A stretch of DNA of 64,000 nt. It comes from Candidatus Melainabacteria bacterium RIFCSPHIGHO2_02_FULL_34_12 (lineage in GTDB: Bacteria; Cyanobacteriota; Vampirovibrionia; 2-02-FULL-35-15). Under the pieces are notes generated by a model that was not told the DNA's origin, made no database searches, and saw only the letters and a list, made by a program, of their open reading frames with translations. Of the stretch, positions 5,094 through 61,136 are shown piece by piece; position 1 is the first letter of the stretch, and every line of letters begins with the position of its first letter. The translations under genes and the position numbers were made by a program. The stretch spans positions 65,606-129,605 of the forward strand of contig MFRM01000003.1 in the NCBI GenBank assembly GCA_001784555.1, written 5' to 3'.

Positions 5094-6026
5094 ATGACAG
5101 GGGAAAATTCAAAAAAAAGTTTAATCTGGGTTTATCCACCAAATAAATGGATTTCGAATTGCAATAAGACATTTGTTTACGGGTGGACAAAACCAGGATG
5201 TAGGTTATATGCAGTCTGTAAAGGCAAAATTAAAAAGATAAAAGTATTTCCAAATGGAAACTTTGCACAAAAAATAAAACTACCACAGAAAAAAAATATT
5301 GTTCAGTTAGTTCAGGTGTTAAACGGAAAAGAAAAAACAATAACAAGATGTGTCATTGCGAGGGAGCAAAGCGACCGAAGCAATCCCGATCGATTTTCGC
5401 GAGGTAGATCGGGATTGCTTCGTCGGCACTTTGTGCCTCCTCGCAATGACATGGTCATCGTCATCGATCCCGGTCATGGTGGCAAAGAACATGGTACACA
5501 CTCACCAAAGGGTGTTCCTGAAAAAGTTTATAATTTACAAATTGCAAAAAACCTCGTACAGGCATTGCACACAACACCCCAACAATGGAAAATTTACCTC
5601 ACTCGTTCTACGGATAAATTTGTCTCTTTAAAAGATCGTGTCCGTTTTGCAAAAAATAAAAAATGTAATTTATTAATCTCAATTCACCACAATGCACTTC
5701 CAGACAATGAAGATCCACTTAAGCATAGAGGAGTCGGGATTTATTACACACATGATTTTGTAAAACCACTTGGAAAATCACTACTAGAAAGTATTTCAAA
5801 ATCTGTAAGGGCACGCCATGGCACGCCCTTACAAAAATACGGTTTGTATAAAAGAGATTTCGCACTTACAAAACCTGACTTTTGTCATGCAGTGTTAATT
5901 GAATGTGGATTTTTAATTCATCCGGTAGAAGGAGAAATTATTACACAAAAAAATACACAGAAAAAAATTGTAACCGGTGTAAAAAAAGCCTTATTTACTT
6001 TTTACCGTCGACAACCACTTAAGTGA
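5094..6026 (+). CDS. N-acetylmuramoyl-L-alanine amidase (Amidase_3) carrying three repeat-derived segments
   Basis: IDPGHGG, EK, SIHHNA and LIECGF zinc/catalytic motifs. Confidence 0.9.
   Translation: MTGENSKKSLIWVYPPNKWISNCNKTFVYGWTKPGCRLYAVCKGKIKKIKVFPNGNFAQKIKLPQKKNIVQLVQVLNGKEKTITRCVIAREQSDRSNPDRFSRGRSGLLRRHFVPPRNDMVIVIDPGHGGKEHGTHSPKGVPEKVYNLQIAKNLVQALHTTPQQWKIYLTRSTDKFVSLKDRVRFAKNKKCNLLISIHHNALPDNEDPLKHRGVGIYYTHDFVKPLGKSLLESISKSVRARHGTPLQKYGLYKRDFALTKPDFCHAVLIECGFLIHPVEGEIITQKNTQKKIVTGVKKALFTFYRRQPLK
5351..5451. mobile_element. family B 101-bp MITE-like element, in-frame in the amidase
   Basis: Terminal inverted repeats TGTCATTGCGAG / CTCGCAATGACA and inner pair GAAGCAATCCCGATC / GATCGGGATTGCTTC. 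Confidence 0.9.
5556..5584. repeat. degenerate family A copy in the amidase (VQALHTTPQQ)
   Basis: gtacaggcattgcacacaacaccccaaca aligns with gtagaggcgttgcgcgcaacgcctctac (32301), mostly by G>A changes. Confidence 0.6.
5804..5833. repeat. family A palindrome in the amidase (VRARHGTPLQ)
   Basis: tgtaagggcacgccatggcacgcccttaca. Confidence 0.88.
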
Positions 6027-11704: not shown

Positions 11705-12430
11705 ATGTCACTAAAAGCCCGAAATCTAGTTAAAACATACAGCGGAAGAACTGTTGTAAATAATATCTCTTTTGAAGTAAAGCCTGGAGAAATTGTCGGC
11801 TTGCTTGGTCCAAACGGTGCAGGAAAAACCACATCTTTTGACATGATAGTCGGATTAATTAAGCCTGATGCAGGGGGAGTAAGTTTATTTGAAAAAGATT
11901 TAACAAAAATTCCTATTCACGAAAGATCCCAATCAGGTATAGGATATCTAACTCAGGAACCGTCTGTTTTCAGGAGGCTATCAGTAGCAGATAATTTAAG
12001 ACTTATCTGGGATGTACTTGAAAATATTGATAAAAAAGAACAGGAAGAACAGCTTGCAAAATTATTAAATGAATTTGATCTCACTGATTTAAAAGATCAT
12101 ATTGCCATAAGTTTAAGCGGCGGAGAAAGACGGCGTGTTGAAATAGCCAGAGTTCTTACAGCAGATCCGAAATTTATTCTTCTTGATGAACCATTTACAG
12201 GAGTAGATCCTATTGCCATTCAGGAAATTCAAAAATTAATTGAAGATTTAAAACATAAACGTAATATGGGTATTTTGCTAACTGATCATAATCCACGTGC
12301 AACCCTTTCCATTACTGATAGAGCATACATAATTCAGGATGGAAAAATATTGCTTTCTGGTACTGCTAAAGAAATTGCAAAAGATCCGATTGCCCTTAAA
12401 TATTATCTGGGAGAGGATTTCACATTATGA
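11705..12430 (+). CDS. lptB: LPS export ABC transporter ATP-binding protein
   Basis: GLLGPNGAGKTT, GIGYLTQEPSVFR, LSGGERRRVEIAR, DEPFTGVDPI, TDHN. Confidence 0.95.
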   Translation: MSLKARNLVKTYSGRTVVNNISFEVKPGEIVGLLGPNGAGKTTSFDMIVGLIKPDAGGVSLFEKDLTKIPIHERSQSGIGYLTQEPSVFRRLSVADNLRLIWDVLENIDKKEQEEQLAKLLNEFDLTDLKDHIAISLSGGERRRVEIARVLTADPKFILLDEPFTGVDPIAIQEIQKLIEDLKHKRNMGILLTDHNPRATLSITDRAYIIQDGKILLSGTAKEIAKDPIALKYYLGEDFTL

Positions 12431-13575
12431 TTAAGCTTTTTAGACAAATTCTATTTTCAAGAATCAATATCCTCGACAGATACATTATTAACGAATTCTG
12501 GATTCCTTTCATTTCAGGCTCTGCAATTATTACAGGTATATGGCTTAGCGCAGATCAACTCAGGCAGGTTTTTAAACTTATTACCATTGCAGATGCTCCA
12601 ATCAGGCTTGCCATAACTATTTTAGGTCTGCATATGCCTGCAATTATTGTGATCACTATTCCAATAGGAATTTTATGGTCTTCATTTCTAGTATTCAGTC
12701 GCTTAAATCATGACTCTGAGATCATTGCCATGAGAACAAGTGGAATAAGCCTAACTAAAATAATGAGACCTGTGATTTTATTTGGATGTATTGCTGCTCT
12801 TTTTTCTTTTTCAATAAATGAAATTGTAGTCCCATTTACAAATCCCCTTGCAAGAAAACTTGAGATTTATTCTATTTACAAAAATCCACTTCCAAACAGC
12901 CAGAAAAACTTTACATATCTTGAAAAGGGATCAAATAAAAAACTAAGAAGAATTTTTTATGCTGCTTATTATAATGCAGACAAAGATCTTCTGAAGAACA
13001 TAGTAATTCTTGATTTTACAAGAGCGGGACTAACACAAATCTATACTGCAAAACATGCCAGATGGAAACCTGAAAAGGGAGGTTGGCAGCTCTACAAAGG
13101 AACGAATCACTTTATTTCAAACAACGATGCATTAAGCAGGGTTTCAAGTTTTCATTCTTTTTTCATTCCAAGCAGCTCAACCCCTGCAAAATTAATTAGA
13201 GAACTTAGCAAACCAAAAGAAATGAATATTGTTAAACTTTGGAATTTCCTGGAACTTCAAAAAGATAAAACCATTAACACTGATGATTATAATGAGGCCA
13301 GGGTTAATTTCCACAACAAATTTGCCCAGCCCATTGCATGTCTTTTAATTGCACTTATTGGAGCACCTCTGGGAATACTTCCAAGACGTTCAAGCTCCAG
13401 CTGGAATTACATATTTCTTGCAGTAATAATTTTCCAGTTTTATGTTACACAGTCTATATGTCTCTCTATGGCAGAAGCAAACAGGCTTTTACCATTCATT
13501 GCAGCATGGCTTCCAAATATTGTTTTGCTTTTAATTTCTTTAATTATTATCAGACAAAAGACACGTTTGGCGTAA
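12427..13575 (+). CDS. LptF/LptG (YjgP/Q) family permease
   Basis: ILDRYI, SRLNHDSEIIAMRTSGIS, AAWLPN; coupled to lptB by an ATGA overlap. Confidence 0.92.
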   Translation: MIKLFRQILFSRINILDRYIINEFWIPFISGSAIITGIWLSADQLRQVFKLITIADAPIRLAITILGLHMPAIIVITIPIGILWSSFLVFSRLNHDSEIIAMRTSGISLTKIMRPVILFGCIAALFSFSINEIVVPFTNPLARKLEIYSIYKNPLPNSQKNFTYLEKGSNKKLRRIFYAAYYNADKDLLKNIVILDFTRAGLTQIYTAKHARWKPEKGGWQLYKGTNHFISNNDALSRVSSFHSFFIPSSSTPAKLIRELSKPKEMNIVKLWNFLELQKDKTINTDDYNEARVNFHNKFAQPIACLLIALIGAPLGILPRRSSSSWNYIFLAVIIFQFYVTQSICLSMAEANRLLPFIAAWLPNIVLLLISLIIIRQKTRLA

Positions 13576-13653
13576 ATATTTAGGTTCAAAATCACAAAAT
13601 GATACCCATGGTTACATGCATTTTAACCCTTGCAGAATATAATCACATGGCAA

Positions 13654-14226
13654 ATGGAATCAAATTATAATCCTGCGATTCACCATAGGCGATCAATTCG
13701 ATTAAAAGAATTTAATTATTCACAAAATGGTTATTATTTTATTACAATTTGCACAAAAAACAGAGAATGTTATTTGGGCAAAATTATAAATAAAAAAATG
13801 ACATTATCCAATGAAGGAAAAATTGTTTTGCAATATTGGAATGAATTACCAAATCACTTTTCAAATGTTGGTTTGGATGAATATGTAATAATGCCAAATC
13901 ATTTGCACGGAATTATTGTTATTGAAAACGATTTGAATAATGACAATCGTAATGCGCAATGTAGGGGCGGGGTTACCCCGCCCCTACAACATTACACATT
14001 GGGTCAAATCATTGCATATTTGAAATATCAAACAACAAAAACAATAAATCAATTTTATAAAACCCCCGGCAAACCATTCTGGCAACGCAATTATTATGAA
14101 CACATAATCCGTAATGAATCAGAATTAACCCGTATTCATGAATACATTAGAAATAATCCTATACAATGGGAATTTGACAGGAATAACCGAAAAAACATTG
14201 CTAGAATAAATAATCACAATATATGA
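13654..14226 (+). CDS. REP-associated HUH/Y1 tyrosine transposase (RAYT, IS200/TnpA superfamily)
   Basis: HHRRSIRL..YS..GYYFITIC, MPNHLHGII (HUH), WQRNYYEHIIR..YIRNNP..W (catalytic Tyr); stop overlaps the mnmA ATG. Confidence 0.93.
   Translation: MESNYNPAIHHRRSIRLKEFNYSQNGYYFITICTKNRECYLGKIINKKMTLSNEGKIVLQYWNELPNHFSNVGLDEYVIMPNHLHGIIVIENDLNNDNRNAQCRGGVTPPLQHYTLGQIIAYLKYQTTKTINQFYKTPGKPFWQRNYYEHIIRNESELTRIHEYIRNNPIQWEFDRNNRKNIARINNHNI
13960..13988. repeat. family A palindrome inside the RAYT gene (CRGGVTPPLQ)
   Basis: tgtaggggcggggttaccccgcccctaca, perfect stem. Confidence 0.95.
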
Positions 14227-15413
14227 CCCCGCAAATCCTAGAAAAACAAAAACTATACGAAAACTATTGGCCGTCACTAGACAGCAAAATTGCTATCTGC
14301 ATGAGCGGTGGAGTAGACAGCAGCGTCAGTGCTTATTTACTTGCTAAAAAAGGTTATAAAACTGTCGGACTTACCGGCTGGCTTTTTAAAGGATCCAATC
14401 GCTGCTGTGACGGCGGAATGATTGATGCAGCAAAGATCTCTGAGTTTATAGGCATAGAACATCTATCTAAAGATTTAAGAGAACTTTTTAAAAATCAAAT
14501 CGTAGATCATTTTATTTCTTCCTACGGTAGCGGATCCACACCGATTCCATGCATTACCTGTAACAATGTCATTAAATGGGGATCACTTATGGAATATGCA
14601 TTTAATGAATTAAATTGTACACATATTGCTACGGGTCATTATGCAAAACTGGTAAATGATAACGGATATTTTAAAATCGTCCGTCCAAAAGATTCTAAAA
14701 AAGATCAAACATTTATGCTCTGGGGATTAACACAGGATGTGCTTTCCAGAACAGTTTTTCCATTAGGAGATTTAACAAAAGATGAAGTCAGAGATGCTGC
14801 CAGAGACGGAAATTTGTTTTTAGCCGAAAAAGAAGAAAGTCAGGATATTTGTTTTGTCTCAGAAAAAGAAGGAACTCAGGGGTTCCTTGGAAAATTTCTT
14901 GAACAAAAAGAAGGATTTATTATTGAAAATAAAACCGGAAATGTTTTAGGAACACATAGCGGTACTCATAATTACACTATCGGTCAAAGAAAAGGCATGG
15001 GAATTGCTTATAGCGAACCTCTTTATGTAATAGATGTAGATGTAGAAAAAAATATTGTTTATGCAGGTACTAAAGAAGAATTAGAAGGATGTGAATTAAT
15101 TGCAAAGGATGTGAATTGGATTTATCCTATAATTGCGAGGAGGCACGAAGTACCGACGAAGCAATCTCGATCGAATTCAAAAGATACGCTCGGGACTGCT
15201 TCGGGGTTTTCAACCCCTCGCAGTGACACTATCCGTGTCATGGCAAAAATCAGATATAATTCAAAAACTTCACCTGCAACAATCTCACTCTTGGAAGATA
15301 ATAAAATAAAAATGGTCTTTGATGAACCACAGTCAGCAATTACTCCCGGACAGGCATGTGTGTTTTATGATGAGACGGATCAAATTCTTCTTGGCGGTGG
15401 GTGGATAACTTAG
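14223..15413 (+). CDS. mnmA: tRNA 2-thiouridine(34) synthase
   Basis: MSGGVDSS, PIPCITCN, ATGHYA, KDQT, ESQDICF, TIGQRKG, ITPGQ. Confidence 0.97.
   Translation: MTPQILEKQKLYENYWPSLDSKIAICMSGGVDSSVSAYLLAKKGYKTVGLTGWLFKGSNRCCDGGMIDAAKISEFIGIEHLSKDLRELFKNQIVDHFISSYGSGSTPIPCITCNNVIKWGSLMEYAFNELNCTHIATGHYAKLVNDNGYFKIVRPKDSKKDQTFMLWGLTQDVLSRTVFPLGDLTKDEVRDAARDGNLFLAEKEESQDICFVSEKEGTQGFLGKFLEQKEGFIIENKTGNVLGTHSGTHNYTIGQRKGMGIAYSEPLYVIDVDVEKNIVYAGTKEELEGCELIAKDVNWIYPIIARRHEVPTKQSRSNSKDTLGTASGFSTPRSDTIRVMAKIRYNSKTSPATISLLEDNKIKMVFDEPQSAITPGQACVFYDETDQILLGGGWIT
15128..15228. mobile_element. family B element in-frame in mnmA, opposite orientation to the amidase copy
   Basis: tataattgcgaggaggcacgaagtaccgacgaagcaatctcgatcg...cccctcgcagtgaca; encodes IIARRHEVPTKQSRSNSKDTLGTASGFSTPRSDT. 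Confidence 0.9.
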
Positions 15414-17388: not shown

Positions 17389-17853
17389 ATGATTACTTTA
17401 ATCCAAAGAGTAACATCTGCAAAAGTAACCATCGAAAATAAGGTTACAGGCAATATAAAAAATGGGCTGCTTCTATATATAGGCTTTGAAGATGGAGACA
17501 ACTTAGAAAAAATAAAATGGTCCATTAATAAAATAATTAACCTTAGAATATTTGCAGATAAAGAAGACAAGATGAACCTTTCTCTTCTGGATATAAAAGG
17601 AGTAGGGGCGTATCGCGATACGCCCTTACTATTGGTGATTTCAAATTTCACTCTCCCGGCTGATTTAAATGAATCAGGCAGAAGACCTTCATTTACAAAA
17701 TCAGCCAGCCCGGAAATAGCAGAAAATCTCTATAATCAGTTTATAGATGAGTGTAAAAATCAAAATATAAATGTAGCTCAAGGAAAATTCGGCGCCATGA
17801 TGGATATTGAATCTGTAAATGATGGACCGGTTAATTTCATATTAAAAAGATGA
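17389..17853 (+). CDS. dtd: D-aminoacyl-tRNA deacylase
   Basis: IQRV..A.V, NLRIF.D...KMNLS, SNFTL, GRRPSF, GKFGAMM, NDGPV. Confidence 0.96.
   Translation: MITLIQRVTSAKVTIENKVTGNIKNGLLLYIGFEDGDNLEKIKWSINKIINLRIFADKEDKMNLSLLDIKGVGAYRDTPLLLVISNFTLPADLNESGRRPSFTKSASPEIAENLYNQFIDECKNQNINVAQGKFGAMMDIESVNDGPVNFILKR
17601..17630. repeat. family A palindrome in dtd (VGAYRDTPL)
   Basis: agtaggggcgtatcgcgatacgcccttact. Confidence 0.92.
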
Positions 17854-24299: not shown

Positions 24300-25718
24300 A
24301 TGAAACAAGTCTACATAGAAACCTTTGGATGTCAGATGAATAAAGCAGATACAGAGCATATGCTTGGACTTCTGGATGAAATTGATTATAAACATACAGA
24401 AAATATTGAAGAAGCTAATCTTGTTTTGTTTAATACTTGTACAATTCGTGAAACAGCAAATCATAAATTTTACAGTCAGCTTGGCATTGTTGGAAAAATG
24501 AAAAAGCAAAGATGTAGAGACGGGGTGACCCCGTCTTTACTGCTTGGAGTAGGGGGTTGTGCAGCCCAGGATAAAAAAGAATGGCTGATTAAAAACTTTC
24601 CTTATGTAGATATTGTATTTGGCACAAATAATATTCAAAATTTACCTGAGCTTGTAAAAAAAGCTGAGAGCGGTAAAAAAGTCTGTGAGATAGAAGAAGA
24701 GCTTCCGTATGAGTTGCCTGAACTGCCTGTAATCCGTCAGACTAAGGTTAGCGCATGGGTAAATGTAATTCTTGGATGTAATTTTAATTGTACTTATTGC
24801 ATAGTTCCCAGTGTTCGCGGAAGAGAAAAAAGCAGAAAGCCTGAAGATATTTTAAAAGAAGTTGAAAGGCTTGCAGAAGAAGGATTTAAGGAAGTCACGT
24901 TACTTGGGCAGAATGTAACTGCTTATGGTTATGATCTTTCATCAAACTACTCAAAAGAAAAAGCCACATTCGGTCACATACCAGATGATCCTGAATATTC
25001 ACTTGCAAAGCTTATTAGATATGTTCATGACGTAGATGGAATTGAAAGAATAAGATTTTTAACAGGGCATCCATTTCATGTAACTGACGAGCTCATAGAT
25101 ACAGTAGCAGAGCTTCCTAAAGCATGCGAATACTTTCACATTCCCATGCAATCTGGAGATAACACAGTTTTAAAGCGAATGGCTAGAGTTTATACTGTAG
25201 AAAAATATAAAGAGATGGTAGAGAAAATTAGAAATAAAATGCCAAGTAGAGGCGTATTGCAATACGCCCATGCTGCAATCACAAGCGATTTTATAGTAGG
25301 TTTTCCTGGTGAGACAGAGGAGCAGTTTTTAAATACAGTAAAAATTGTTAAAGAAATTGGATTTGATGGGTGCAATACAGCAGCATATTCACCCAGACCC
25401 GATACCCCAAGCGCTACATGGGATAAACAAATTCCTGAGGAAGAAAAAAATGCAAGACTTAGATATTTAAACTCTGTTGTAAATGAAGTAGTAGGGATTA
25501 AAAATAAAGATCTTTTGGATACAATTCAGGAAGTTTTAGTAGAAGGTACAAGTAAGCGAAATGAAAACAATTTGAGCGGCAGAACGCGGGGAAATACAAT
25601 TGTTAATTTTGATCCTACAATGGCGGGTTTTAAACCCGCCATTGTAGGCACATTGGTAAATATAAAAATAACAAAGGTAAAACGATGGGCTCTTGATGGT
25701 GAGGTGGTAGGCAATTAA
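24300..25718 (+). CDS. miaB: tRNA-i6A37 methylthiotransferase
   Basis: TFGCQMN, NTCTIRE, GCNFNCTYCIVP (radical SAM), DFIVGFPGET, C-terminal TRAM domain. Confidence 0.96.
   Translation: MKQVYIETFGCQMNKADTEHMLGLLDEIDYKHTENIEEANLVLFNTCTIRETANHKFYSQLGIVGKMKKQRCRDGVTPSLLLGVGGCAAQDKKEWLIKNFPYVDIVFGTNNIQNLPELVKKAESGKKVCEIEEELPYELPELPVIRQTKVSAWVNVILGCNFNCTYCIVPSVRGREKSRKPEDILKEVERLAEEGFKEVTLLGQNVTAYGYDLSSNYSKEKATFGHIPDDPEYSLAKLIRYVHDVDGIERIRFLTGHPFHVTDELIDTVAELPKACEYFHIPMQSGDNTVLKRMARVYTVEKYKEMVEKIRNKMPSRGVLQYAHAAITSDFIVGFPGETEEQFLNTVKIVKEIGFDGCNTAAYSPRPDTPSATWDKQIPEEEKNARLRYLNSVVNEVVGIKNKDLLDTIQEVLVEGTSKRNENNLSGRTRGNTIVNFDPTMAGFKPAIVGTLVNIKITKVKRWALDGEVVGN
24513..24540. repeat. family A palindrome in miaB, first copy (CRDGVTPSL)
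   Basis: tgtagagacggggtgaccccgtctttac. Confidence 0.9.
25246..25273. repeat. family A palindrome in miaB, second copy (SRGVLQYAHA)
   Basis: gtagaggcgtattgcaatacgcccatgc; same core as 38356. Confidence 0.88.
25614..25648. repeat. 35-bp perfect palindrome in the miaB TRAM domain, with reversed CTAC...GTAG ends
   Basis: cctacaatggcgggttt-t-aaacccgccattgtagg (17-bp arms). Confidence 0.9.
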
Positions 25719-32299: not shown

Positions 32300-32329
32300 A
32301 GTAGAGGCGTTGCGCGCAACGCCTCTACT
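32300..32329. repeat. family A perfect palindrome just after the asd stop
   Basis: agtagaggcgttgcgcgcaacgcctctact. Confidence 0.95.
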
Positions 32330-33501: not shown

Positions 33502-34416
33502 ATGCAAAACCCATTTGGTCAAGTTTTAACAGCAATGATCACACCTTTTTGTAGAGGCGAGGTAACCTCGCCTCTACAAATAGATTATGAAGGCACTGAA
33601 AAATTAATTGACCATTTAATTAAGACTGGAACAGACACAATCATAGTTGCTGGCACTACAGGTGAAAGTCCTACCTTATCTCATGAAGAAGAAAGAGAAC
33701 TTTGCAAATTTGTACAAAAAACTACGGGCAAAAAAATTAAAATAATTCTAGGTGCAGGTTCTAATTCCACAGCAACTGCAATTGAATCCACAAAAGAAGC
33801 AGAAAAATTAGGCGTAGATGGAGTACTTTCTGTAGTTCCTTATTACAACAAACCAAATCAAAGAGGACTTATTGAACATTTTAGTCAGATTGCAAAGTCT
33901 ACAAGTCTGCCAATTATTTTGTATAACATTCCAGGTCGTACTGGAATAAATATGGAGCCTCAAACAGCAGCAGAACTTGTCAGTAAATTTAAAAATATAA
34001 TTGGATATAAAGATGCTACAGGTAATCTGGAAAATACCAGCCAAGTAATACAATTAGCACCAAAAGGATTCCTTATATATAGCGGGGATGACAGCTTAAC
34101 CCTTCCAATGTTATCTATAGGAGCTGTTGGTGTTATAAGCGTAGCCAGTCATATTGTTGGAAATGAAATTAAGGATATGATAAATTCTTTCTTTACGGGT
34201 AAAATAGATAAAGCAAAAGAGATTCATAACAAACTTTTTCCTTTATTTAAAGCATTATTTAAGGCACCAAATCCTACATGTATAAAAGCAGCACTGGAAA
34301 TAAAAGGAATATGCAAATCAGATTTAAGATTGCCACTTGTAAAATTAACTGAAAAAGAATTAGCTGAATTAAAAATGGTGATTGAAAAAATAGAAAATCA
34401 ATTAATCAAGGCATAA
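33502..34416 (+). CDS. dapA: 4-hydroxy-tetrahydrodipicolinate synthase
   Basis: TAMITPF, GTTGESPTL, PYYNKP, LYNIPGRTG, GYKDA, YSGDD. Confidence 0.97.
   Translation: MQNPFGQVLTAMITPFCRGEVTSPLQIDYEGTEKLIDHLIKTGTDTIIVAGTTGESPTLSHEEERELCKFVQKTTGKKIKIILGAGSNSTATAIESTKEAEKLGVDGVLSVVPYYNKPNQRGLIEHFSQIAKSTSLPIILYNIPGRTGINMEPQTAAELVSKFKNIIGYKDATGNLENTSQVIQLAPKGFLIYSGDDSLTLPMLSIGAVGVISVASHIVGNEIKDMINSFFTGKIDKAKEIHNKLFPLFKALFKAPNPTCIKAALEIKGICKSDLRLPLVKLTEKELAELKMVIEKIENQLIKA
33550..33578. repeat. family A perfect palindrome in dapA (CRGEVTSPLQ)
   Basis: tgtagaggcgaggtaacctcgcctctaca. Confidence 0.95.
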
Positions 34417-37211: not shown

Positions 37212-38174
37212 TTACATAATCAATCCATTCAAATACTCGTCAAAATCAAATTCTACGATGTCGTCTATTTGTTCACCTGTTCCTATAAATTTTACAGGTA
37301 GAGAAAGTTTGTTCATAATATTTAAAATCACACCGCCCTTTGCAGAACTGTCGAGCTTAGAAAGAATAATGCCGGTAAGTCCAATGGCTTTTGAAAATAA
37401 TTCTGCCTGAACAATTGCATTTTGACCAATCGTGGCATCCAGTACGATTAGCTTCTCAAGATTTGGAGCCATGCCAAGGCATGGCTTTACAAATTTTTCG
37501 ATTATAGAATTTATTTTCCGCAATTCATCCATGAGATTAATCTGTGAATGTAATCTCCCTGCAGTATCAATGAGGACAACATTAAAATTTTCATTTTTTG
37601 CTTTCTTAAGCGCAGCATAAACTACAGCATCTGGTTTTTTAACCTCAGGAGGTGAAAATATTTCTGCTTCTGCTCGCTTTGCCCATACATCAAGCTGTTC
37701 TCCTGCAGCTGCACGAAAGGTATCTCCTGCCACGATTAAAACTTTTTGTTTGCCATCTTTAAATCTCCTTGCAAGTTTGCCTATAGATGTGGTTTTACCG
37801 GAGCCGTTTACACCGACGATTAAATAAATTCCGTTTTGAAGGTGGGGTCCCGGGACTTCACCTTCGGGTAATTGTGATTTTATTGTTTCCTTTATTTTTT
37901 CTTGTAATTTATTTTTTTCAATCTGTAAGGGCGTGCCATGGACTGCCCCTACTTTTATATTCTTCTTTAATTCATTAATAATTTTTTCAGACAGCTCAAG
38001 ACCTACATCAGCTTTAATGAATTTTTCTAAAAGACTGTCATAGAATTCTTCATCAACATTTATGTTTATATTCTCTGTCGTAGGGACGTAGCGAGCTACG
38101 TCCCTACGGGTTTTTGATAATGCTTCTTTTATCTTGAATATATTATTTTCCAACCACTTCTTCATCTTAAGCAT
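37212..38174 (-). CDS. ftsY: signal recognition particle receptor FtsY
   Basis: ADVG, VGVNGSGKTTSIGKLA, GDTFRAAA, DTAGRLH, DATIGQN, SKLDSSAKGG, GTGE. Confidence 0.96.
   Translation of the reverse strand: MLKMKKWLENNIFKIKEALSKTRRDVARYVPTTENININVDEEFYDSLLEKFIKADVGLELSEKIINELKKNIKVGAVHGTPLQIEKNKLQEKIKETIKSQLPEGEVPGPHLQNGIYLIVGVNGSGKTTSIGKLARRFKDGKQKVLIVAGDTFRAAAGEQLDVWAKRAEAEIFSPPEVKKPDAVVYAALKKAKNENFNVVLIDTAGRLHSQINLMDELRKINSIIEKFVKPCLGMAPNLEKLIVLDATIGQNAIVQAELFSKAIGLTGIILSKLDSSAKGGVILNIMNKLSLPVKFIGTGEQIDDIVEFDFDEYLNGLIM
37463..37491. repeat. family A palindrome in ftsY (VKPCLGMAP)
   Basis: Minus strand tgtaaagccatgccttggcatggctccaa. Confidence 0.82.
37837..37866. repeat. GTCCCGGGAC-core palindrome in ftsY (EGEVPGPHLQ)
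   Basis: gaaggtggggtcccgggacttcaccttc; related copy at 38488. Confidence 0.8.
37924..37953. repeat. family A palindrome in ftsY (VGAVHGTPLQ)
   Basis: tgtaagggcgtgccatggactgcccctact. Confidence 0.87.
38079..38108. repeat. family A perfect palindrome in ftsY (RRDVARYVPT)
   Basis: cgtagggacgtagcgagctacgtccctacg. Confidence 0.95.
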
Positions 38175-38187
38175 CTATAATAACATT

Positions 38188-39657
38188 ATGGTTAACAAGG
38201 ACTCCATTGCATTACTCCCTCTAGACGACCGTCCAGTTTCTTATCTACTTCCAAAACAAATTGCTGATTTTTCAGGAGTAAATTTAATTTTACCTGAGAG
38301 AAAATATCTTGGTGATTTAAATCATGGATCTGATTTGAAATATATTGATAATTGGTGTAGGGGCGTATTGCAATACGCCCCTACATTTGTTGTTTCATTG
38401 GACAGCTGGGTTTACGGTGGATTGGTTCAATCAAGAAAACACGATTTCACATTAGACGAATTAAAGAAACGTGTTAGTGCACTCGCGGGAGGCGAGGTCC
38501 CGGGATCTCGCCTGCAGAATGTTTATGGATTTTCATCCATAATGCGAATCCCAAATTATAATTCCAGCGAAGAAGAAAAAGATTACTGGAAAGACTATGG
38601 AGAAAGTATTTTTAAGTGGTCTGAGCTTATGCATAAAGTAGGAAGAGGGATTACTGAAAAAGGAACATCTCATGAAGAGCTGCTGGAAAAATGGTATGAG
38701 AGTTCAAAATCAATTCCAGTGAACGTTCTGGCTGATTATAAAAGACACAGAGATAAAAACCTTACGGTTAATTTGCTTTGGATCGAACTGTCACATGATA
38801 AATGTTTTGAATGTTTAATTTTTTCATGTGACGATTCTTCTAGATATGGAATGAATGTAATTGAAGCTGAATATATTAAACGAGAAATTAAAAAGCACAG
38901 ATTTTCAGATCTAGCTAAAGTAATTTCAGGCACTGATGAAATATCTCTTGTTCTTATGACTAAAGCAAATCTTAAATCACAAGACAAAAAACCTTCTCTA
39001 TGTCTTTTCTTTAACAGCATTGAGGGTAAAACCCAGATCCCAAGATATGAATCAAATACAATACATGAATCTATTAAAGATCAAATAGATACTTTAGGGC
39101 TTGAAATAAAAGATTTAAATGAATCTGATATTTTAGTTTGTATTCATCTTTCAGATTCAGTCCAGGGAGATCATATTTTTAAAATTAAACCCTGCGACAC
39201 TTCAAAAAATATTGAAGAGCTAAAGAATATGCTTGAAAAAATTAATAAGCCTTTTATTCTGATAGATCTTGCATATGCAAACGGATCAGATCCACAGCTC
39301 ATAGAAGCACTGATAAATTCAAAAATCAACTGGGACCATTGTTACGGTTATGCAGGCTGGAATACCTGCTCAAACAGCACTGGTTCAGCTCTAGCAATAG
39401 GAATAAACAGGTGGATTGCTGAAAAAAATAGTTCCTTTAATAAGATTGCATTTAAAAAATGTCTTCTTACAAGATTTTTAGATGATTATGCATATCAGGC
39501 TCAGATAAGACATGTTGGTATTACAGAAAAAGAGATAAACAAAAAAATAATGCCACATGTTCAGGCATTTTCAAAACTTTTAGGAATAAATGATATAAAG
39601 GTAAAATGTTCACTGCCATGGAAAAGAACATTTGAAGCAGAGATCGATGTCATATAA
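38188..39657 (+). CDS. DUF4127-like protein
   Basis: LPLDDRP, SLD..VYGGLVQSR, FSSIMR, GTDE, DLAYANGSD, YAGWNTCSNSTG, RFLDDYAYQA. Confidence 0.8.
   Translation: MVNKDSIALLPLDDRPVSYLLPKQIADFSGVNLILPERKYLGDLNHGSDLKYIDNWCRGVLQYAPTFVVSLDSWVYGGLVQSRKHDFTLDELKKRVSALAGGEVPGSRLQNVYGFSSIMRIPNYNSSEEEKDYWKDYGESIFKWSELMHKVGRGITEKGTSHEELLEKWYESSKSIPVNVLADYKRHRDKNLTVNLLWIELSHDKCFECLIFSCDDSSRYGMNVIEAEYIKREIKKHRFSDLAKVISGTDEISLVLMTKANLKSQDKKPSLCLFFNSIEGKTQIPRYESNTIHESIKDQIDTLGLEIKDLNESDILVCIHLSDSVQGDHIFKIKPCDTSKNIEELKNMLEKINKPFILIDLAYANGSDPQLIEALINSKINWDHCYGYAGWNTCSNSTGSALAIGINRWIAEKNSSFNKIAFKKCLLTRFLDDYAYQAQIRHVGITEKEINKKIMPHVQAFSKLLGINDIKVKCSLPWKRTFEAEIDVI
38356..38385. repeat. family A perfect palindrome in the DUF4127 gene (CRGVLQYAPT)
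   Basis: tgtaggggcgtattgcaatacgcccctaca. Confidence 0.95.
38488..38516. repeat. GTCCCGGGA-core palindrome in the DUF4127 gene (GGEVPGSRLQ)
   Basis: ggaggcgaggtcccgggatctcgcctgca. Confidence 0.8.
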
Positions 39658-41313: not shown

Positions 41314-41343
41314 TGTAGAGGCGTAGTGCATTATGCCTCTACA
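41314..41343. repeat. family A palindrome, intergenic after argS
   Basis: tgtagaggcgtagtgcattatgcctctaca. Confidence 0.88.
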
Positions 41344-42301: not shown

Positions 42302-43159
42302 TTAATATCCCGGAAGCAAGCTTCCGGATTTTACACTTCGCTCAAATATAAACAAACATCTATCTAATTTAGAATAATCTTTTACAATTTCAAAACTGTT
42401 TAATCCTTTTGATTTCAGCAGTTTTATTAAATCATTCACAAGAGATGGATCTATTTCTAATGCAATCAAACGTTTATTGTCATTGCGAGGAGCAGTTATC
42501 AATTCAAATATCCTCTCATAATATATTAATCCTGAATTATTTTCTTTTGAGCCGACAAGTGCAATCTTAGGTTCATGAAGCACAACCTCGGGTCTTAATT
42601 TCTTCATTTCGCTTGATTTCACGTAAGGTGGATTTGAGATTATTAGATCAAAATTATTTCTATTTAATATTTCTTCCATGCCATTAGAAAATACATCACA
42701 TACCTCAAATTTTATTTTCTCCGAAACATTGTTTTTCTCAGCATTTTCTCTGGCTAAATTTATAATGTCTTCATTTACATCTATTGCAATGATTTTTATA
42801 TCCGGAATTAATCTGGCAAGTGCAATTGCAATGATGCCAGAGCCAGTGCCTATATCCAATGCCGTAGGGACATGCCGCGGCATGTCCCTACTATTGATTA
42901 ACCTTCTCACCGTTTCTTCAACTAGAATTTCAGTCTCAGGTCTAGGTATCAAAACATTTTTATCGACTTTTACTTCAAAATCCATAAAATAAGCTTTTCC
43001 AAGAATATACTGAATAGGGATTCTTGTTTTTATTCTTTCTGAAATAATTTTTTTTATTTGTTCAGAATCTTTTAATTCCATAAGTAATATGGAAATTTCT
43101 TTTTTTGCTTCCTGAGGCTCTATTCCTGCAGAAATTAGTTTTTCAATTAATTCTTCCAT
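42302..43159 (-). CDS. prmC: release factor glutamine methyltransferase
   Basis: PIQYILG, VLIPRPETE, LDIGTGSG, ISNPPY, HEPKIAL. Confidence 0.95.
   Translation of the reverse strand: MEELIEKLISAGIEPQEAKKEISILLMELKDSEQIKKIISERIKTRIPIQYILGKAYFMDFEVKVDKNVLIPRPETEILVEETVRRLINSRDMPRHVPTALDIGTGSGIIAIALARLIPDIKIIAIDVNEDIINLARENAEKNNVSEKIKFEVCDVFSNGMEEILNRNNFDLIISNPPYVKSSEMKKLRPEVVLHEPKIALVGSKENNSGLIYYERIFELITAPRNDNKRLIALEIDPSLVNDLIKLLKSKGLNSFEIVKDYSKLDRCLFIFERSVKSGSLLPGY
42479..42493. repeat. family B terminal remnant in prmC (APRND)
   Basis: gtcattgcgaggagc. Confidence 0.7.
42864..42891. repeat. family A perfect palindrome in prmC (SRDMPRHVPT)
   Basis: gtagggacatgccgcggcatgtccctac. Confidence 0.95.
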
Positions 43160-43833
43160 TATTTTCTTACTAAAATGACAAAATGATCATCATAAGGATC
43201 GTCAATATTATTTCTTATTGCTTTTATTTCACTATGTGAAAGCTCTATTTTAGTATTTGTATGAAGTTTTTTAAATAAAGAGATTGAGCATAATTTATAT
43301 CCTGCTTTTTTTAAAAGTTTTTTTATATAGAAATCTCTGTAACCCCATGTTTTAATGCCTGCTGTACTTATATACATTTGCTTCGGGCTCTTCCCATCAT
43401 AATCACATGAACTTAAATTATCAAAAACAGTAAAAGCAAAATATCCGCCTGGCTTTAGTATATTTTTTACGTTTTTAATTACTTTATCAGGATTTTTAGA
43501 ATAATCCATGACGCCGGAACTTATAACAAAATTAAATTGTTCTTTTCCGAATTTTTTAACCAGATTAATATCCTGACTTGTTTTTATAAGTTTTAGAGTT
43601 CCTCTACACTTTGATTTAAAATATTCTTTTGCTTTTTTAAGTGATGTTTCATTAATATCAAAACCTACAATGTTCAAAGCAGGTTGTTTTTTAAGCAGAT
43701 ATTTTGTTACCCCGCCTTTTCCAATGCCTATTTCAAGGATTCTATTGTTTTTTCTTATTTTATTTAAAATCAGCCTGGCAACTGGTTTTTGTCCGCGCCA
43801 GTATGTTTCATCAGGTATTTTATTTTTTTTCAT
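43159..43833 (-). CDS. class I SAM-dependent methyltransferase
   Basis: ILEIGIGKG, GFDIN, ILKPGG. The ORF-track start at 43851 lies in a palindrome. Confidence 0.85.
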   Translation of the reverse strand: MKKNKIPDETYWRGQKPVARLILNKIRKNNRILEIGIGKGGVTKYLLKKQPALNIVGFDINETSLKKAKEYFKSKCRGTLKLIKTSQDINLVKKFGKEQFNFVISSGVMDYSKNPDKVIKNVKNILKPGGYFAFTVFDNLSSCDYDGKSPKQMYISTAGIKTWGYRDFYIKKLLKKAGYKLCSISLFKKLHTNTKIELSHSEIKAIRNNIDDPYDDHFVILVRK

Positions 43834-59090: not shown

Positions 59091-59966
59091 TTACTTTAAT
59101 GCTTCCACACCACCTACTATTTCAGTAAGCTCCTGAGTAATGGCTGCCTGTCTAGCTTTATTATAGACAATGGTCAGGCGGTCAATTAGTTCTTTTGCAT
59201 TTTTAGTAGCACTAGACATTGCATTCATTCGGCTGGCTAGCTCACTGGTACTAGCTTCAAGCAATGCATGGAAAATAATATTACTTAAATATAACGGAAG
59301 AAGACTTCCTAGAACATCATTTAATGAAGGTTCAAATAAAACTTCAGACTGTAATTTATTTGATTCTTCTTTTTCTTCAGGAATTATAGGCAAGAAAGTT
59401 TTTATATAAACCTGATTTCTAAGCATGGATATAAAATCAGTTCCTACGATTTCAATTTTATCTACAGACTTATTAATAAAGACTTTTTCAGCACTGTTGG
59501 CAATTAAATTAGCCATTTCAATAGAAGGCACTGCGGAAAGTTGTGTAAAAGTTTCAATGATTTCAGTTTTTGTTCTTTTAAAAAAATTATTTGCTTTATT
59601 TCCGACTGCAATAAGTTTTGGTTCAAAACCATCTTTTTTTAGTTCGAGTATTCTTTTTGTGGCTGTTTTTAAAATGTTTGTATTGTAGCTGCCACATAAC
59701 CCTCTGTCTGAGCTTATTACAATAATGCCTACAGACTTTACTTCTCTTTGAACCATTAGGGGAATCTCCTGTCTTTCAAGGAGGGACATTGCTCCTACGG
59801 TTCTTTTAATAAAGGCACTTATCTTATCCGTGTATGGTCTGGCACTTAATACCCTGGCCTGTGCTCTTCTTACTTTACTTGCAGCAACCAATTTCATTGC
59901 CTGGGTGATTTTTTGAGTGCTTTTTACAGACTTAATGCGGACTTTGATACTTTTTAAGTTTGGCAT
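59091..59966 (-). CDS. atpG: F1 ATP synthase gamma subunit
   Basis: RIKSVKSTQKITQAMKLVAASK, SDRGLCGSYN, SELASRM.AM..AT.NA, YNKARQAAITQELTEIVGG. Confidence 0.97.
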   Translation of the reverse strand: MPNLKSIKVRIKSVKSTQKITQAMKLVAASKVRRAQARVLSARPYTDKISAFIKRTVGAMSLLERQEIPLMVQREVKSVGIIVISSDRGLCGSYNTNILKTATKRILELKKDGFEPKLIAVGNKANNFFKRTKTEIIETFTQLSAVPSIEMANLIANSAEKVFINKSVDKIEIVGTDFISMLRNQVYIKTFLPIIPEEKEESNKLQSEVLFEPSLNDVLGSLLPLYLSNIIFHALLEASTSELASRMNAMSSATKNAKELIDRLTIVYNKARQAAITQELTEIVGGVEALK

Positions 59967-60074: not shown

Positions 60075-61136
60075 ATGAAACTGAGCTTTTTAAAATCACT
60101 CTTATTATTTTTAATTTTGAATTATATTCTTTTAAATTCTATTCCTTCTATATGTCAAACAGAAATGCCGGAAACTGTACCAGATCCTACAAAAAAATAT
60201 GATGAGCTTTTTAATAAACCACCTGAAACACAGGAAAGCACTCCTGAGCCAGTACAGGAAGATGAGCTGGTTTCATTCTTACCAAAACTTGATAATGAAT
60301 TATATAAGAACTGGTCAGTTGTTGAGAGTCCCAGGATCATAACTACTACAGATGATGATGTATTAAAAGAAGCAGGTTTTGAAAAAGTACTTAAGCAATC
60401 ATATAAAAAAGAAAATCATATTGTTGATATTTATATTTATAAATTTAAAGATTTCGCAGGTGCATATAGTGCATTTACTGTACTGCACAGAGGTGCTGCC
60501 ACAAAATTAGAAGTCGGCAGAAATGCAAGCGAGAATGACAGTCTGGTAGATTTCTGGAAAGGAAATTATTTTGTTAACATTCAGACACTTGCTGAAAATG
60601 ATAAGGACGCTAAAGAATTTATAGTCTTATCAAGTCAGGATATTTCAAAAAATATAACTGATGATAAAATGCCACCGGTTATTGTAATTCAAATGCCTTC
60701 ATTAAATCGAGTTCAGGGCACAGAAAAATATTGCCTTGGTATAGTTTGCTGCCAAAAATATCTTGCAAGTAATCTCACTGAAATTGATTTTAATTCCCTG
60801 CATTTAAATGAATCTGGCGGAATTATTACAGCACAATATCAATTTCCTGAAAATAAAGATGAAAGGATTACATTATTACTTTTACGTTATATTGAAAAAC
60901 AAACAGCTGCACAAACATTTAATTATTTCAAGGAGTCTTTCGAGAAGAAAAAAGCAGACAACTATGATACTGAAGAAGGTATATTAAAAATAAAGAATGA
61001 AAAAAGTGATTACACATATATTAAACAAAGAGGAAATCTTCTTGGCATAGCATTTGCCATTACAAATAAAAAATCGGGTGAACAATTACTGAATTTTATT
61101 CCTTGGCCTATTGAGATTACAAAGCCCAAAGACTAA
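60075..61136 (+). CDS. exported hypothetical protein
   Basis: Hydrophobic signal-like N-terminus, P/E/T-rich linker, IY.F....GAYSAFT and FWKGNYFV.I motifs. Confidence 0.7.
   Translation: MKLSFLKSLLLFLILNYILLNSIPSICQTEMPETVPDPTKKYDELFNKPPETQESTPEPVQEDELVSFLPKLDNELYKNWSVVESPRIITTTDDDVLKEAGFEKVLKQSYKKENHIVDIYIYKFKDFAGAYSAFTVLHRGAATKLEVGRNASENDSLVDFWKGNYFVNIQTLAENDKDAKEFIVLSSQDISKNITDDKMPPVIVIQMPSLNRVQGTEKYCLGIVCCQKYLASNLTEIDFNSLHLNESGGIITAQYQFPENKDERITLLLLRYIEKQTAAQTFNYFKESFEKKKADNYDTEEGILKIKNEKSDYTYIKQRGNLLGIAFAITNKKSGEQLLNFIPWPIEITKPKD

Follow-up and report, generated by a model that had tools for sequence, protein, structure and literature searches.

The stretch of DNA analysed here, hereafter the window, comprises 64,000 nucleotides of Candidatus Melainabacteria bacterium RIFCSPHIGHO2_02_FULL_34_12 (C3:65606-129605 of a 2.11-Mb assembly in 26 contigs, with 34% guanine plus cytosine (GC) and 94.7% completeness). 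It holds a gene for a REP-associated tyrosine transposase (RAYT, or TnpA_REP) that carries a repetitive extragenic palindrome (REP) inside its own reading frame, and the in-gene REP is quite probably a copy of the substrate of the encoded enzyme. The open frame covers 13630-14226 on the plus strand from a TTG, a possible alternative start, and its first ATG at 13654 gives a protein of 190 amino acids; position 13576, where a preliminary description made from the sequence let the feature begin, is the base right after the stop codon of the preceding lptF/G gene. That description had the HUH (HLH) and Y1 motifs intact, and indeed H83-L-H85 and Y164 in YIRNNP are in place, with H83, H85, W143 and Y164 invariant in an alignment of 38 homologous sequences. 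The protein matches Pfam Y1_Tnp with 29.9 bits (6.6e-7, cut-off 23), and a protein search gave 7,984 relatives among 8,000 scored candidates. An AlphaFold2 model based on the 38-sequence alignment has a mean predicted local distance difference test score (pLDDT) of 86.5, and its best match among solved structures is 4er8_A, the E. coli TnpA_REP with its REP hairpin (Foldseek E 1.1e-6, TM 0.55-0.62), followed by the IS608 and ISDra2 TnpA proteins. The alignment profile had 4er8 as its sole match among PDB sequences (2.4e-6), where phmmer with the single RAYT protein found nothing at E 0.01.

The in-gene palindrome has two arms of 14 nt each (13960-13973 and 13975-13988) that are 100% complementary and 1 nt apart, and it is read in frame as CRGGVTPPLQ, residues 103-112, which bears out the perfect hairpin previously described as translated in the loop after the HUH motif. 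As single-stranded DNA it folds with -17.3 kcal/mol (z = -5.6), and none of 200 shuffles folds equally well. With 2 mismatches at most, 6 copies of the arm 12-mer are present in the window, where 0.44 are expected and none of 100 shuffles reaches 6. In the AlphaFold2 model the REP residues fall in a coil between the HUH strand, residues 83-90, and the helix 116-135, which is alphaC. Confidence is low in this coil, where residues 91-110 have pLDDT values of 64 and 59, and the surroundings reach 86-98. An assembly artefact was rejected, the palindromic element being found in several sequencing runs. Reads of four DNA runs assembled on the gene into short contigs only, which end at or near the hairpin. 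The high summed read depth over the hairpin and the WQRNYY region in these runs stems from other organisms, and one read joint from 13771 to 14096, with a 25-letter side at 85% likeness, is probably from another organism or a paralogue.

The in-gene REP belongs to the 27-nt class of a REP family that is dispersed over the genome. A scan for GTA[GA]...[CT]TAC spanning 25-32 nt, in which 11 or more of the 13 outermost pairs had to be complementary, gave 109 sites in the genome and 2 each in the reversed and the shuffled genome, and the exact double-foot pattern matched 78 times against 0 in the control. After a GC filter 99 REPs were kept, with lengths of 28 nt (72 REPs), 27 nt (19) and 29 nt (8). 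All 13 pairs match in 69 of them, and 70 distinct inner cores occur among the 99. A chance palindrome was rejected on the excess of the arm 12-mer, the genome-wide family relative to its controls and the shuffle folding test. The foot variants change on both arms in step, the five main symmetric types having 26, 17, 15, 9 and 6 copies, and some process or selection holds both arms symmetric. Mismatches in the imperfect REPs are G-T in 18, A-C in 13 and other in 8 cases. In 48/99 REPs the flanking bases at -1 and +1 could pair with each other, mostly as T...A or A...T, compared with 20-31/99 for positions 2-6, and many of the 28-mers may therefore be 30-nt units, that is ten codons. Open reading frames (ORFs) from stop to stop of at least 120 codons contain 65 of the 99 REPs without interruption; for random 28-mers the figure is 88%. 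The preliminary description suggested that the need to stay translatable in the parent gene could explain why dispersed REPs are tolerated in ORFs, but GC-richness by itself would leave most REP frames open. The REP in dapA (Table 1) follows the conserved ITPF near the N-terminus of the protein and makes a 5-6 residue insertion relative to the solved DapA structures 5ktl and 6t3t.

The window gene was compared with subclass 2.4 of Quentin, Siguier, Chandler and Fichant (2018, BMC Genomics 19:475, PMC6006769), which equals Bertels RAYT group 4. The subclass is described there by the motifs NH[IFV]H, WQ and YIxNNP, a median length of 194 amino acids, a variable insertion between beta3 and alphaC, and 'double-foot' REPs of the form GT[AG]G...C[TC]AC that are also found in frame between HuH and Y. 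The gene is placed in this subclass because it has NHLH, WQ, YIRNNP, a length of 190 amino acids without a C-terminal extension domain, and a double-foot REP in that very loop, between the strand 83-90 and the helix 116-135. The Y1_Tnp match and the fold and profile matches to 4er8 account for the HUH/Y1 core. The L of NHLH lies outside the printed consensus; it is common among the homologues and is listed among the class 2 residues at position u (PMC6006769). Dispersed GT[AG]G-footed double-foot REPs and few, divergent RAYT copies are both found in the genome, and low copy number, divergent copies per genome and a patchy spread over many phyla are also reported for the subclass (PMC6006769). 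What is different here is the host, which is of the Melainabacteria type with 34% GC and has two thirds of its REPs in ORFs, and the distance of the REPs. The large majority of subclass 2.4 genes have REPs within 1 kb according to PMC6006769, a frequent rather than a defining trait, whereas the genome scan found none within 3.4 kb of the window RAYT, the nearest being 7.8 kb upstream and 3.4 kb downstream, in agreement with the REP-free flanks noted earlier. The position of the REP inside the gene had been presented as an oddity, and this does not stand: the arrangement is already published as a hallmark of subclass 2.4 (PMC6006769), and the window gene is a typical member and no new kind. No paper treating in-gene REPs beyond PMC6006769 was found in the literature search. 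An IS200/IS605 element (subclass 1.1) was also considered, as its TnpA shares the HUH/Y1 fold and the single-strand hairpin substrate. Such elements are listed with Y...Q, DH[VI]H, many near-identical copies, subterminal hairpins and often tnpB (Table 1 of PMC6006769). This candidate was rejected on YIRNNP and NHLH, on the neighbours lptF/G and mnmA, and on paralogues that are at most 57% identical; tnpB was not found beside the RAYT, as previously noted.

Conservation of the loop hairpin was assessed in 80 homologous loci from many phyla, of which 72 had a locatable HUH-to-WQ segment and 8 had not. In 60/72 loci this segment contains a GC-rich hairpin whose stem is 8 or longer, 30 of them with both feet, and a palindrome at the same position of the homologues, which the preliminary description had proposed to look for, is thus the common state. 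Hairpin density is 5.68/kb in the loop and 0.46/kb outside the gene, a 12-fold difference. Outside the gene, at a distance of up to about 1 kb, 26/72 loci have a GTAG-footed hairpin, which is thus rarer than the internal one. Most of the 38 aligned homologues have (C)RGGVTPPL or GGETPPL directly before TLGQIVAYFKYQ, and in many of them additional palindromes are translated, either in the loop or at the ends of the ORF. REP-like peptides (such as CRGGVTPPLRH, RRGGVSPPS and VGAGLALPK) were also noticed in N- or C-terminal extensions of homologues (P0042, P0120, P0014, P0043, P0088 and P0006), which suggests flanking REPs swallowed by the ORF calls.

Whether residues or bases are conserved was judged from third codon positions in eight sets that share a loop peptide, together 34 of 81 sequences (the 80 loci and the window), at identical residues with at least four codons; amino-acid identity within the sets is 51-61%. 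Inside the hairpin 258/292 third positions (88%) are identical compared with 920/2,539 (36%) elsewhere, in sets that were picked by eye from their loop peptides and with kin pairs that are not independent; the contrast is large nonetheless. Within one set L010 and L012 share a 28-nt hairpin and translate it differently, as GRGTACRAPT and VGARHAVPLP, respectively. Since the synonymous sites match and the hairpin is read in two frames, selection would act on the DNA while the peptide is not conserved.

The relation of the inner core to the protein was analysed in the 60 sequences, one from the window and 59 from loci, whose loop holds a hairpin; 49 of them have any partner with the same core. 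The nearest neighbour by the N and C parts together shares the core in 8/60 cases (permuted mean 2.0, maximum 10), by the N part alone in 13/60 and by the C part alone in 6/60. With the 32 residues before WQ, that is alphaC and the following turn, the number rises to 27/60. In 60 same-core pairs compared with 1,710 different-core pairs, mean identity is 0.58 versus 0.31 in the alphaC segment, where up to about 3 REP-coded residues may be included and inflate the 0.58 only slightly, 0.57 versus 0.52 in the N part and 0.59 versus 0.56 in the C part. A simple model in which each REP class belongs to one RAYT clade was dropped in favour of co-variation with alphaC, the neighbour test on N and C parts being weak. 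In the structure of the E. coli TnpA_REP, alphaC occupies the minor groove of the REP hairpin, and its residues R78, K82 and R97 contact specific bases (PMC3479197). The core therefore co-varies with the helix expected to read it, which is encoded directly after the hairpin. This pattern suggests that hairpin and alphaC are inherited as one module, and is the strongest support for a cognate substrate inside the gene.

The preliminary description had also asked for a comparison of internal hairpins with the dispersed repeats of each genome, and this was done in five genomes (G001-G005) reached through the homologous loci, with a mixed outcome. G001 has 10 copies, 2 of them internal, of a core common to two tandem RAYTs, and none of these is found in the other four genomes. 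G002, with one RAYT, has 48 copies of the internal class. Both intact RAYTs of G004 match abundant classes among 304 double-foot REPs (among the matches listed), and G005 has 6 copies of a class related to the core of one of its RAYTs. The internal class is thus also dispersed in the same genome for five further RAYT cases in four other genomes, in addition to the present one. The exceptions are an internal-only class in G003, Nitrosomonas halophila, and REP classes in G001 and G004 that no RAYT there matches; they are weighed below. A few cores in G002 and G004 reach dozens of identical copies, unlike the core diversity in the genome of the window. The two G001 RAYTs (G001:C1:2835897-2837907; L088/L091) are nearly identical and each has the same internal REP; in N. 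halophila (G003:C92:69834-70374 and 73233-73766; L010/L086/L093) an identical 28-nt double-foot REP is present both in an intact RAYT and in a split copy close by.

Co-occurrence of REPs and RAYTs was surveyed in 26 genomes, the genome of the window and its relatives. The double-foot pattern is present in 8/8 RAYT-bearing genomes (4 to 78 copies) and, of the 18 genomes in which no RAYT was matched, in 2, with 4 and 5 copies; a RAYT relic is present in one of these 2. The 14 genomes outside the family have neither the pattern nor a RAYT. The surveyed genomes are kin, and the co-occurrence therefore represents one or few events and not 26 independent trials. In one relative (G011:C10:43175-43729) the RAYT match has a single TAG stop and a double-foot REP inside at 43431-43458, which may sit in the frame where the GTAG foot reads as a stop.

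The coordinates of the features in the window are given in Table 1. The RAYT lies third in a packed run of four co-oriented genes, in which the ABC ATPase and lptF/G genes overlap by 4 nt (12427-12430) in the same way as RAYT and mnmA; the name LptB used earlier for the ABC ATPase is an inference from gene position. The scan for promoters and terminators gave 13 promoter-like sites where 16.6 are expected and 4 terminator-like sites where 2.4 are expected, none of them at the gene junctions.

Table 1. Features of the RAYT locus and REPs in the window (window positions; assembly positions in brackets where available)
Feature	Position	Strand	Evidence
ABC ATPase gene, LptB-like by position	11705-12430	+	Pfam ABC_tran 2.3e-37
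lptF/lptG-family permease gene	12427-13575	+	Pfam LptF_LptG 1.1e-80
RAYT / TnpA_REP gene, subclass 2.4 type, 190 amino acids	13654-14226	+	ORF, Pfam Y1_Tnp, fold match
HUH motif codons (H83-L84-H85 in MPNHLHG)	13900-13908	+	sequence, alignment
In-gene double-foot REP, perfect 29-nt palindrome, GTAG...CTAC feet 13961-13987	13960-13988	.	genome-wide family member
alphaC helix and following turn, residues 116-142, segment co-varying with REP core	13999-14079	+	AlphaFold2 helix 116-135, co-variation test
W143-Q144 motif codons (FWQRNYYEH)	14080-14085	+	sequence, alignment
Catalytic tyrosine Y164 (in EYIRNNP)	14143-14145	+	sequence, alignment
ATGA, RAYT stop TGA overlapping mnmA ATG	14223-14226	+	sequence
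mnmA (tRNA 2-thiouridylase)	14223-15413	+	Pfam tRNA_Me_trans 1.1e-60 and M, C domains
REP of 27-nt class, one stem mismatch	1222-1248 (C3:66827-66853)	.	scan; open in 457-codon ORF
Double-foot REP, nearest upstream of RAYT	5805-5832 (C3:71410-71437)	.	scan
Double-foot REP, nearest downstream of RAYT	17602-17629 (C3:83207-83234)	.	scan
REP of 27-nt class	24514-24540 (C3:90119-90145)	.	scan; in 496-codon ORF
Double-foot REP	32301-32328 (C3:97906-97933)	.	scan
REP of 27-nt class in dapA (33502-34416), read as CRGEVTSPLQ	33551-33577	.	sequence, structure alignment
Double-foot REP	38080-38107 (C3:103685-103712)	.	scan
Double-foot REP	38357-38384 (C3:103962-103989)	.	scan
Double-foot REP, 11/13 pairs	41315-41342 (C3:106920-106947)	.	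scan
Double-foot REP	42864-42891 (C3:108469-108496)	.	scan

Among genomes of the same family lptF/G adjoins mnmA in 11/11, and lptF/G was not found within about 1.5 kb on either side of mnmA in 13/13 loci of the same class (a fourteenth genome of that class gave no locus). A RAYT is located between the two genes in 2/11 family genomes (L112 and L115); these RAYTs are 42-51% identical to the window RAYT and their flanking genes 67-82%. A relic of the RAYT C-terminus (YI.NNPIKWEFDRNN) with a stop lies in the lptF/G-mnmA spacer at L116:1353-1448 in G009 (E 1.2e-6), and a weak trace of the same C-terminus (YI.NNPIKWEFDRNN) at L111:2693-2728 in G012 (E 0.58). With a RAYT in 2/11 genomes and relics in others, the gene is considered old at this site and repeatedly lost, and it appears to have been in place between lptF/G and mnmA before the Melainabacteria family diversified. 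The coupling to mnmA that had been emphasised in the preliminary description is seen in this genome as the ATGA overlap within a co-oriented run; it is not shared, as both relatives with a RAYT at the locus lack an overlap of this type. The L112 RAYT has 0.67 identity to the window RAYT in the N and C parts and 0.17 in the alphaC segment, and has a different REP. This would fit a replacement of the middle module; as an alternative, a different RAYT possibly arrived independently at the same site.

The genome has three more or less intact RAYT copies and two remnants, and by tblastn the paralogues are 40-57% identical. The second intact paralogue, C3:250685-250212, has a perfect double-foot REP in the same loop (C3:250415-250442), and the paralogue C12:4392-3913 has a different translated GC-rich stretch there, as judged from the translation only. 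In C3:134006-134486, outside the window, the loop between HGIIII and LGQIVGYFKYQ is absent and the frame shifts exactly at this point, which makes the copy a pseudogene or else a scar left by a deletion associated with REPs. On C26, REPs at 59592, 59769 and 60454 are followed by a RAYT C-terminal fragment at 60575-60661 in another frame, 95 nt past a REP; this region (C26:59592-60661) looks like a decayed RAYT, and REPs persist in the neighbouring ORF.

Of the known systems the E. coli TnpA_REP, or REPtron, is closest in structure (Messing et al. 2012, 4ER8, PMC3479197; PMC8266576). The fold is shared, the HUH and Y regions align and identity to the window protein is 18%; the GTAG-footed hairpin substrate and alphaC as hairpin reader, established for the E. 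coli enzyme, are predicted for the window enzyme. Being of subclass 2.2, the E. coli protein has a C-terminal extension, bulged REPs, flanks of bacterial interspersed mosaic elements and no described in-gene REP, unlike the window RAYT. Its activity has been demonstrated. REPs of the GTAG type inside ORFs of several species were reported by Di Nocera, De Gregorio and Rocco (2013, PMC3733652), and these intragenic GTAG/CGTC REPs, as well as the Rickettsia palindromic elements, share with the present family in-frame palindromes, often near ORF ends, in ORFs that are probably functional. Most REPs in that report are intergenic, whereas 65/99 are in ORFs here, and the elements differ from the present ones, which are single 27-29-nt palindromes with highly diverse cores. 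With the REPIN-RAYT systems (Bertels and Rainey 2011; Bertels et al. 2017) the locus has in common a single-copy, vertically inherited, domesticated transposase with a repeat population, and REPs that dwindle where the RAYT is lost, as among the relatives of the window genome. The REPIN-RAYT systems of Pseudomonas and enterobacteria belong to groups 2 and 3 and have spaced extragenic REP pairs, with no in-gene copy in the published descriptions consulted.

Taken together, the evidence makes it fairly likely that this is a subclass 2.4 RAYT whose in-gene REP is a copy of its cognate substrate that travels with the gene, as it is kept as DNA and lies directly 5' of the part coding for alphaC. 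The RAYT would be a single-domain HUH/Y1 nuclease for single-stranded REP hairpins, in which the flexible loop between the HUH strand and alphaC tolerates the ten extra residues of the REP. By analogy with the E. coli TnpA_REP, the enzyme would bind the in-gene hairpin in single-stranded DNA, placing alphaC in the stem and being guided by the GTAG foot, and may cut at a nearby dinucleotide through Y164 (PMC3479197, PMC8266576). Such activity would maintain or spread the REPs, and the internal copy may help to maintain or seed the REP population, or may serve self-regulation. It would be retained for the reason that a gene and a substrate travelling together persist.

The proposal of a cognate substrate, already made in the preliminary description, gains from the position of the hairpin, its conservation as DNA, the alphaC co-variation, the dispersed class and the co-occurrence of REPs and RAYTs. 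Several observations weigh against it. The N. halophila hairpin class is present only inside its two RAYT copies, with no dispersed copy; G001 has 16 copies of a REP class without a matching RAYT and in G004 a class with 43 copies is absent from the intact RAYTs. In the genome of the window 70 REP cores stand against three more or less intact RAYT copies and two remnants, and a single enzyme can therefore not be paired with a single core. No clear loop hairpin was found in 12/72 loci. The third-position contrast depends on the sets and kin pairs described above, and recent re-insertion, instead of long-term selection, would also yield identical hairpins. The equivalog model NF047646 (NCBIfam REP_Tyr_transpos) gives the protein 63.1 bits (E 2.6e-17), under its cut-off of 80, and on this measure it is a relative and no equivalog. 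The RAYT is probably co-transcribed with its neighbours. For subclass 2.4 no biochemical data were found in the literature consulted, Corneloup et al. (2021, PMC8266576) having tested groups 2 and 3 only.

A stronger version, in which the in-gene REP and alphaC form a linked unit of substrate plus reader and the gene carries its own master copy of the REP, is put forward tentatively and is on the doubtful side. If true, the REP population would be seeded after transfer of the gene, a state that the internal-only hairpins of N. halophila would represent, and specificity would be swappable as a module by recombination between paralogues.

An unlikely competitor to the cognate-substrate reading, although the one that survives best, is passive landing: the loop would be harmless for REP insertion and would be hit repeatedly, perhaps because the enzyme prefers sites close to its own gene, and no role would fall to the internal copy itself. 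The very variable length of the loop fits such landings, as do two to four tandem or partial REPs in P0027, P0063, L053 and L054, degenerate or split REPs in L008, L028, L032 and L062, the subclade member that reads the hairpin in the other frame, the paralogue in this genome that lacks the loop altogether, and the REPs in frame in many unrelated ORFs. Re-insertion needs a dispersed source, however, and N. halophila has its hairpins only inside the RAYTs. The finding of one 28-nt sequence in the same position of RAYTs from different phyla, whose other synonymous sites are saturated, argues in the same direction, and so do the tracking of the adjacent alphaC segment by the core and the 12-fold hairpin density of the loop relative to the flanks.

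Less probable still is a role in expression control, by which the hairpin in the mRNA or in transcribed DNA would slow or limit expression of RAYT and mnmA and be kept for that purpose. The stem is strong as DNA, it lies 235 nt upstream of a translationally overlapped gene of essential type, mnmA, and REPs have been reported to affect mRNA stability and translation (PMC3733652; reference list of PMC6006769). Yet no T-run follows the stem, the hairpin is missing from the list of the terminator scan, the two relatives with a RAYT at the locus do not overlap mnmA, and most hairpin-bearing homologues are in unrelated gene contexts. The 18 G-T mismatches among the REPs are not clearly favoured over the 13 A-C mismatches; they give no sign of pairing at the RNA level, although the mismatch types do not separate it from pairing at the DNA level. 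That CRGGVTPPL is a functional part of the enzyme, with a palindrome that arises incidentally from its codons, is highly improbable: the peptide or its GGETPPL form stands before TLGQIVAYFKYQ in most of the closest homologues, but the same DNA hairpin is translated in two frames within one subclade, its synonymous sites agree to 88%, the peptides found at this spot in other subclades are unrelated and all encoded by palindromes, and model confidence in the region is low.

The window gene as such amounts to routine annotation. As a subclass 2.4 RAYT it provides an explanation for the short GC-rich palindromes read through elsewhere in ORFs of this AT-rich genome. The DNA-level conservation of the hairpin, the co-variation with alphaC, the genome with internal hairpins only and the mosaic pair at one locus may be new. 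The first three points, as well as the relics at a conserved locus, are absent from the parts of PMC6006769 consulted and may or may not be in its supplement. If the pattern across genomes holds, the inheritance and exchange of REP specificity and of REP populations would have a simple explanation. The pattern would also give experiments a way into the biochemistry of a large group of RAYTs, one with more than 7,900 relatives and no activity reported in the literature consulted.

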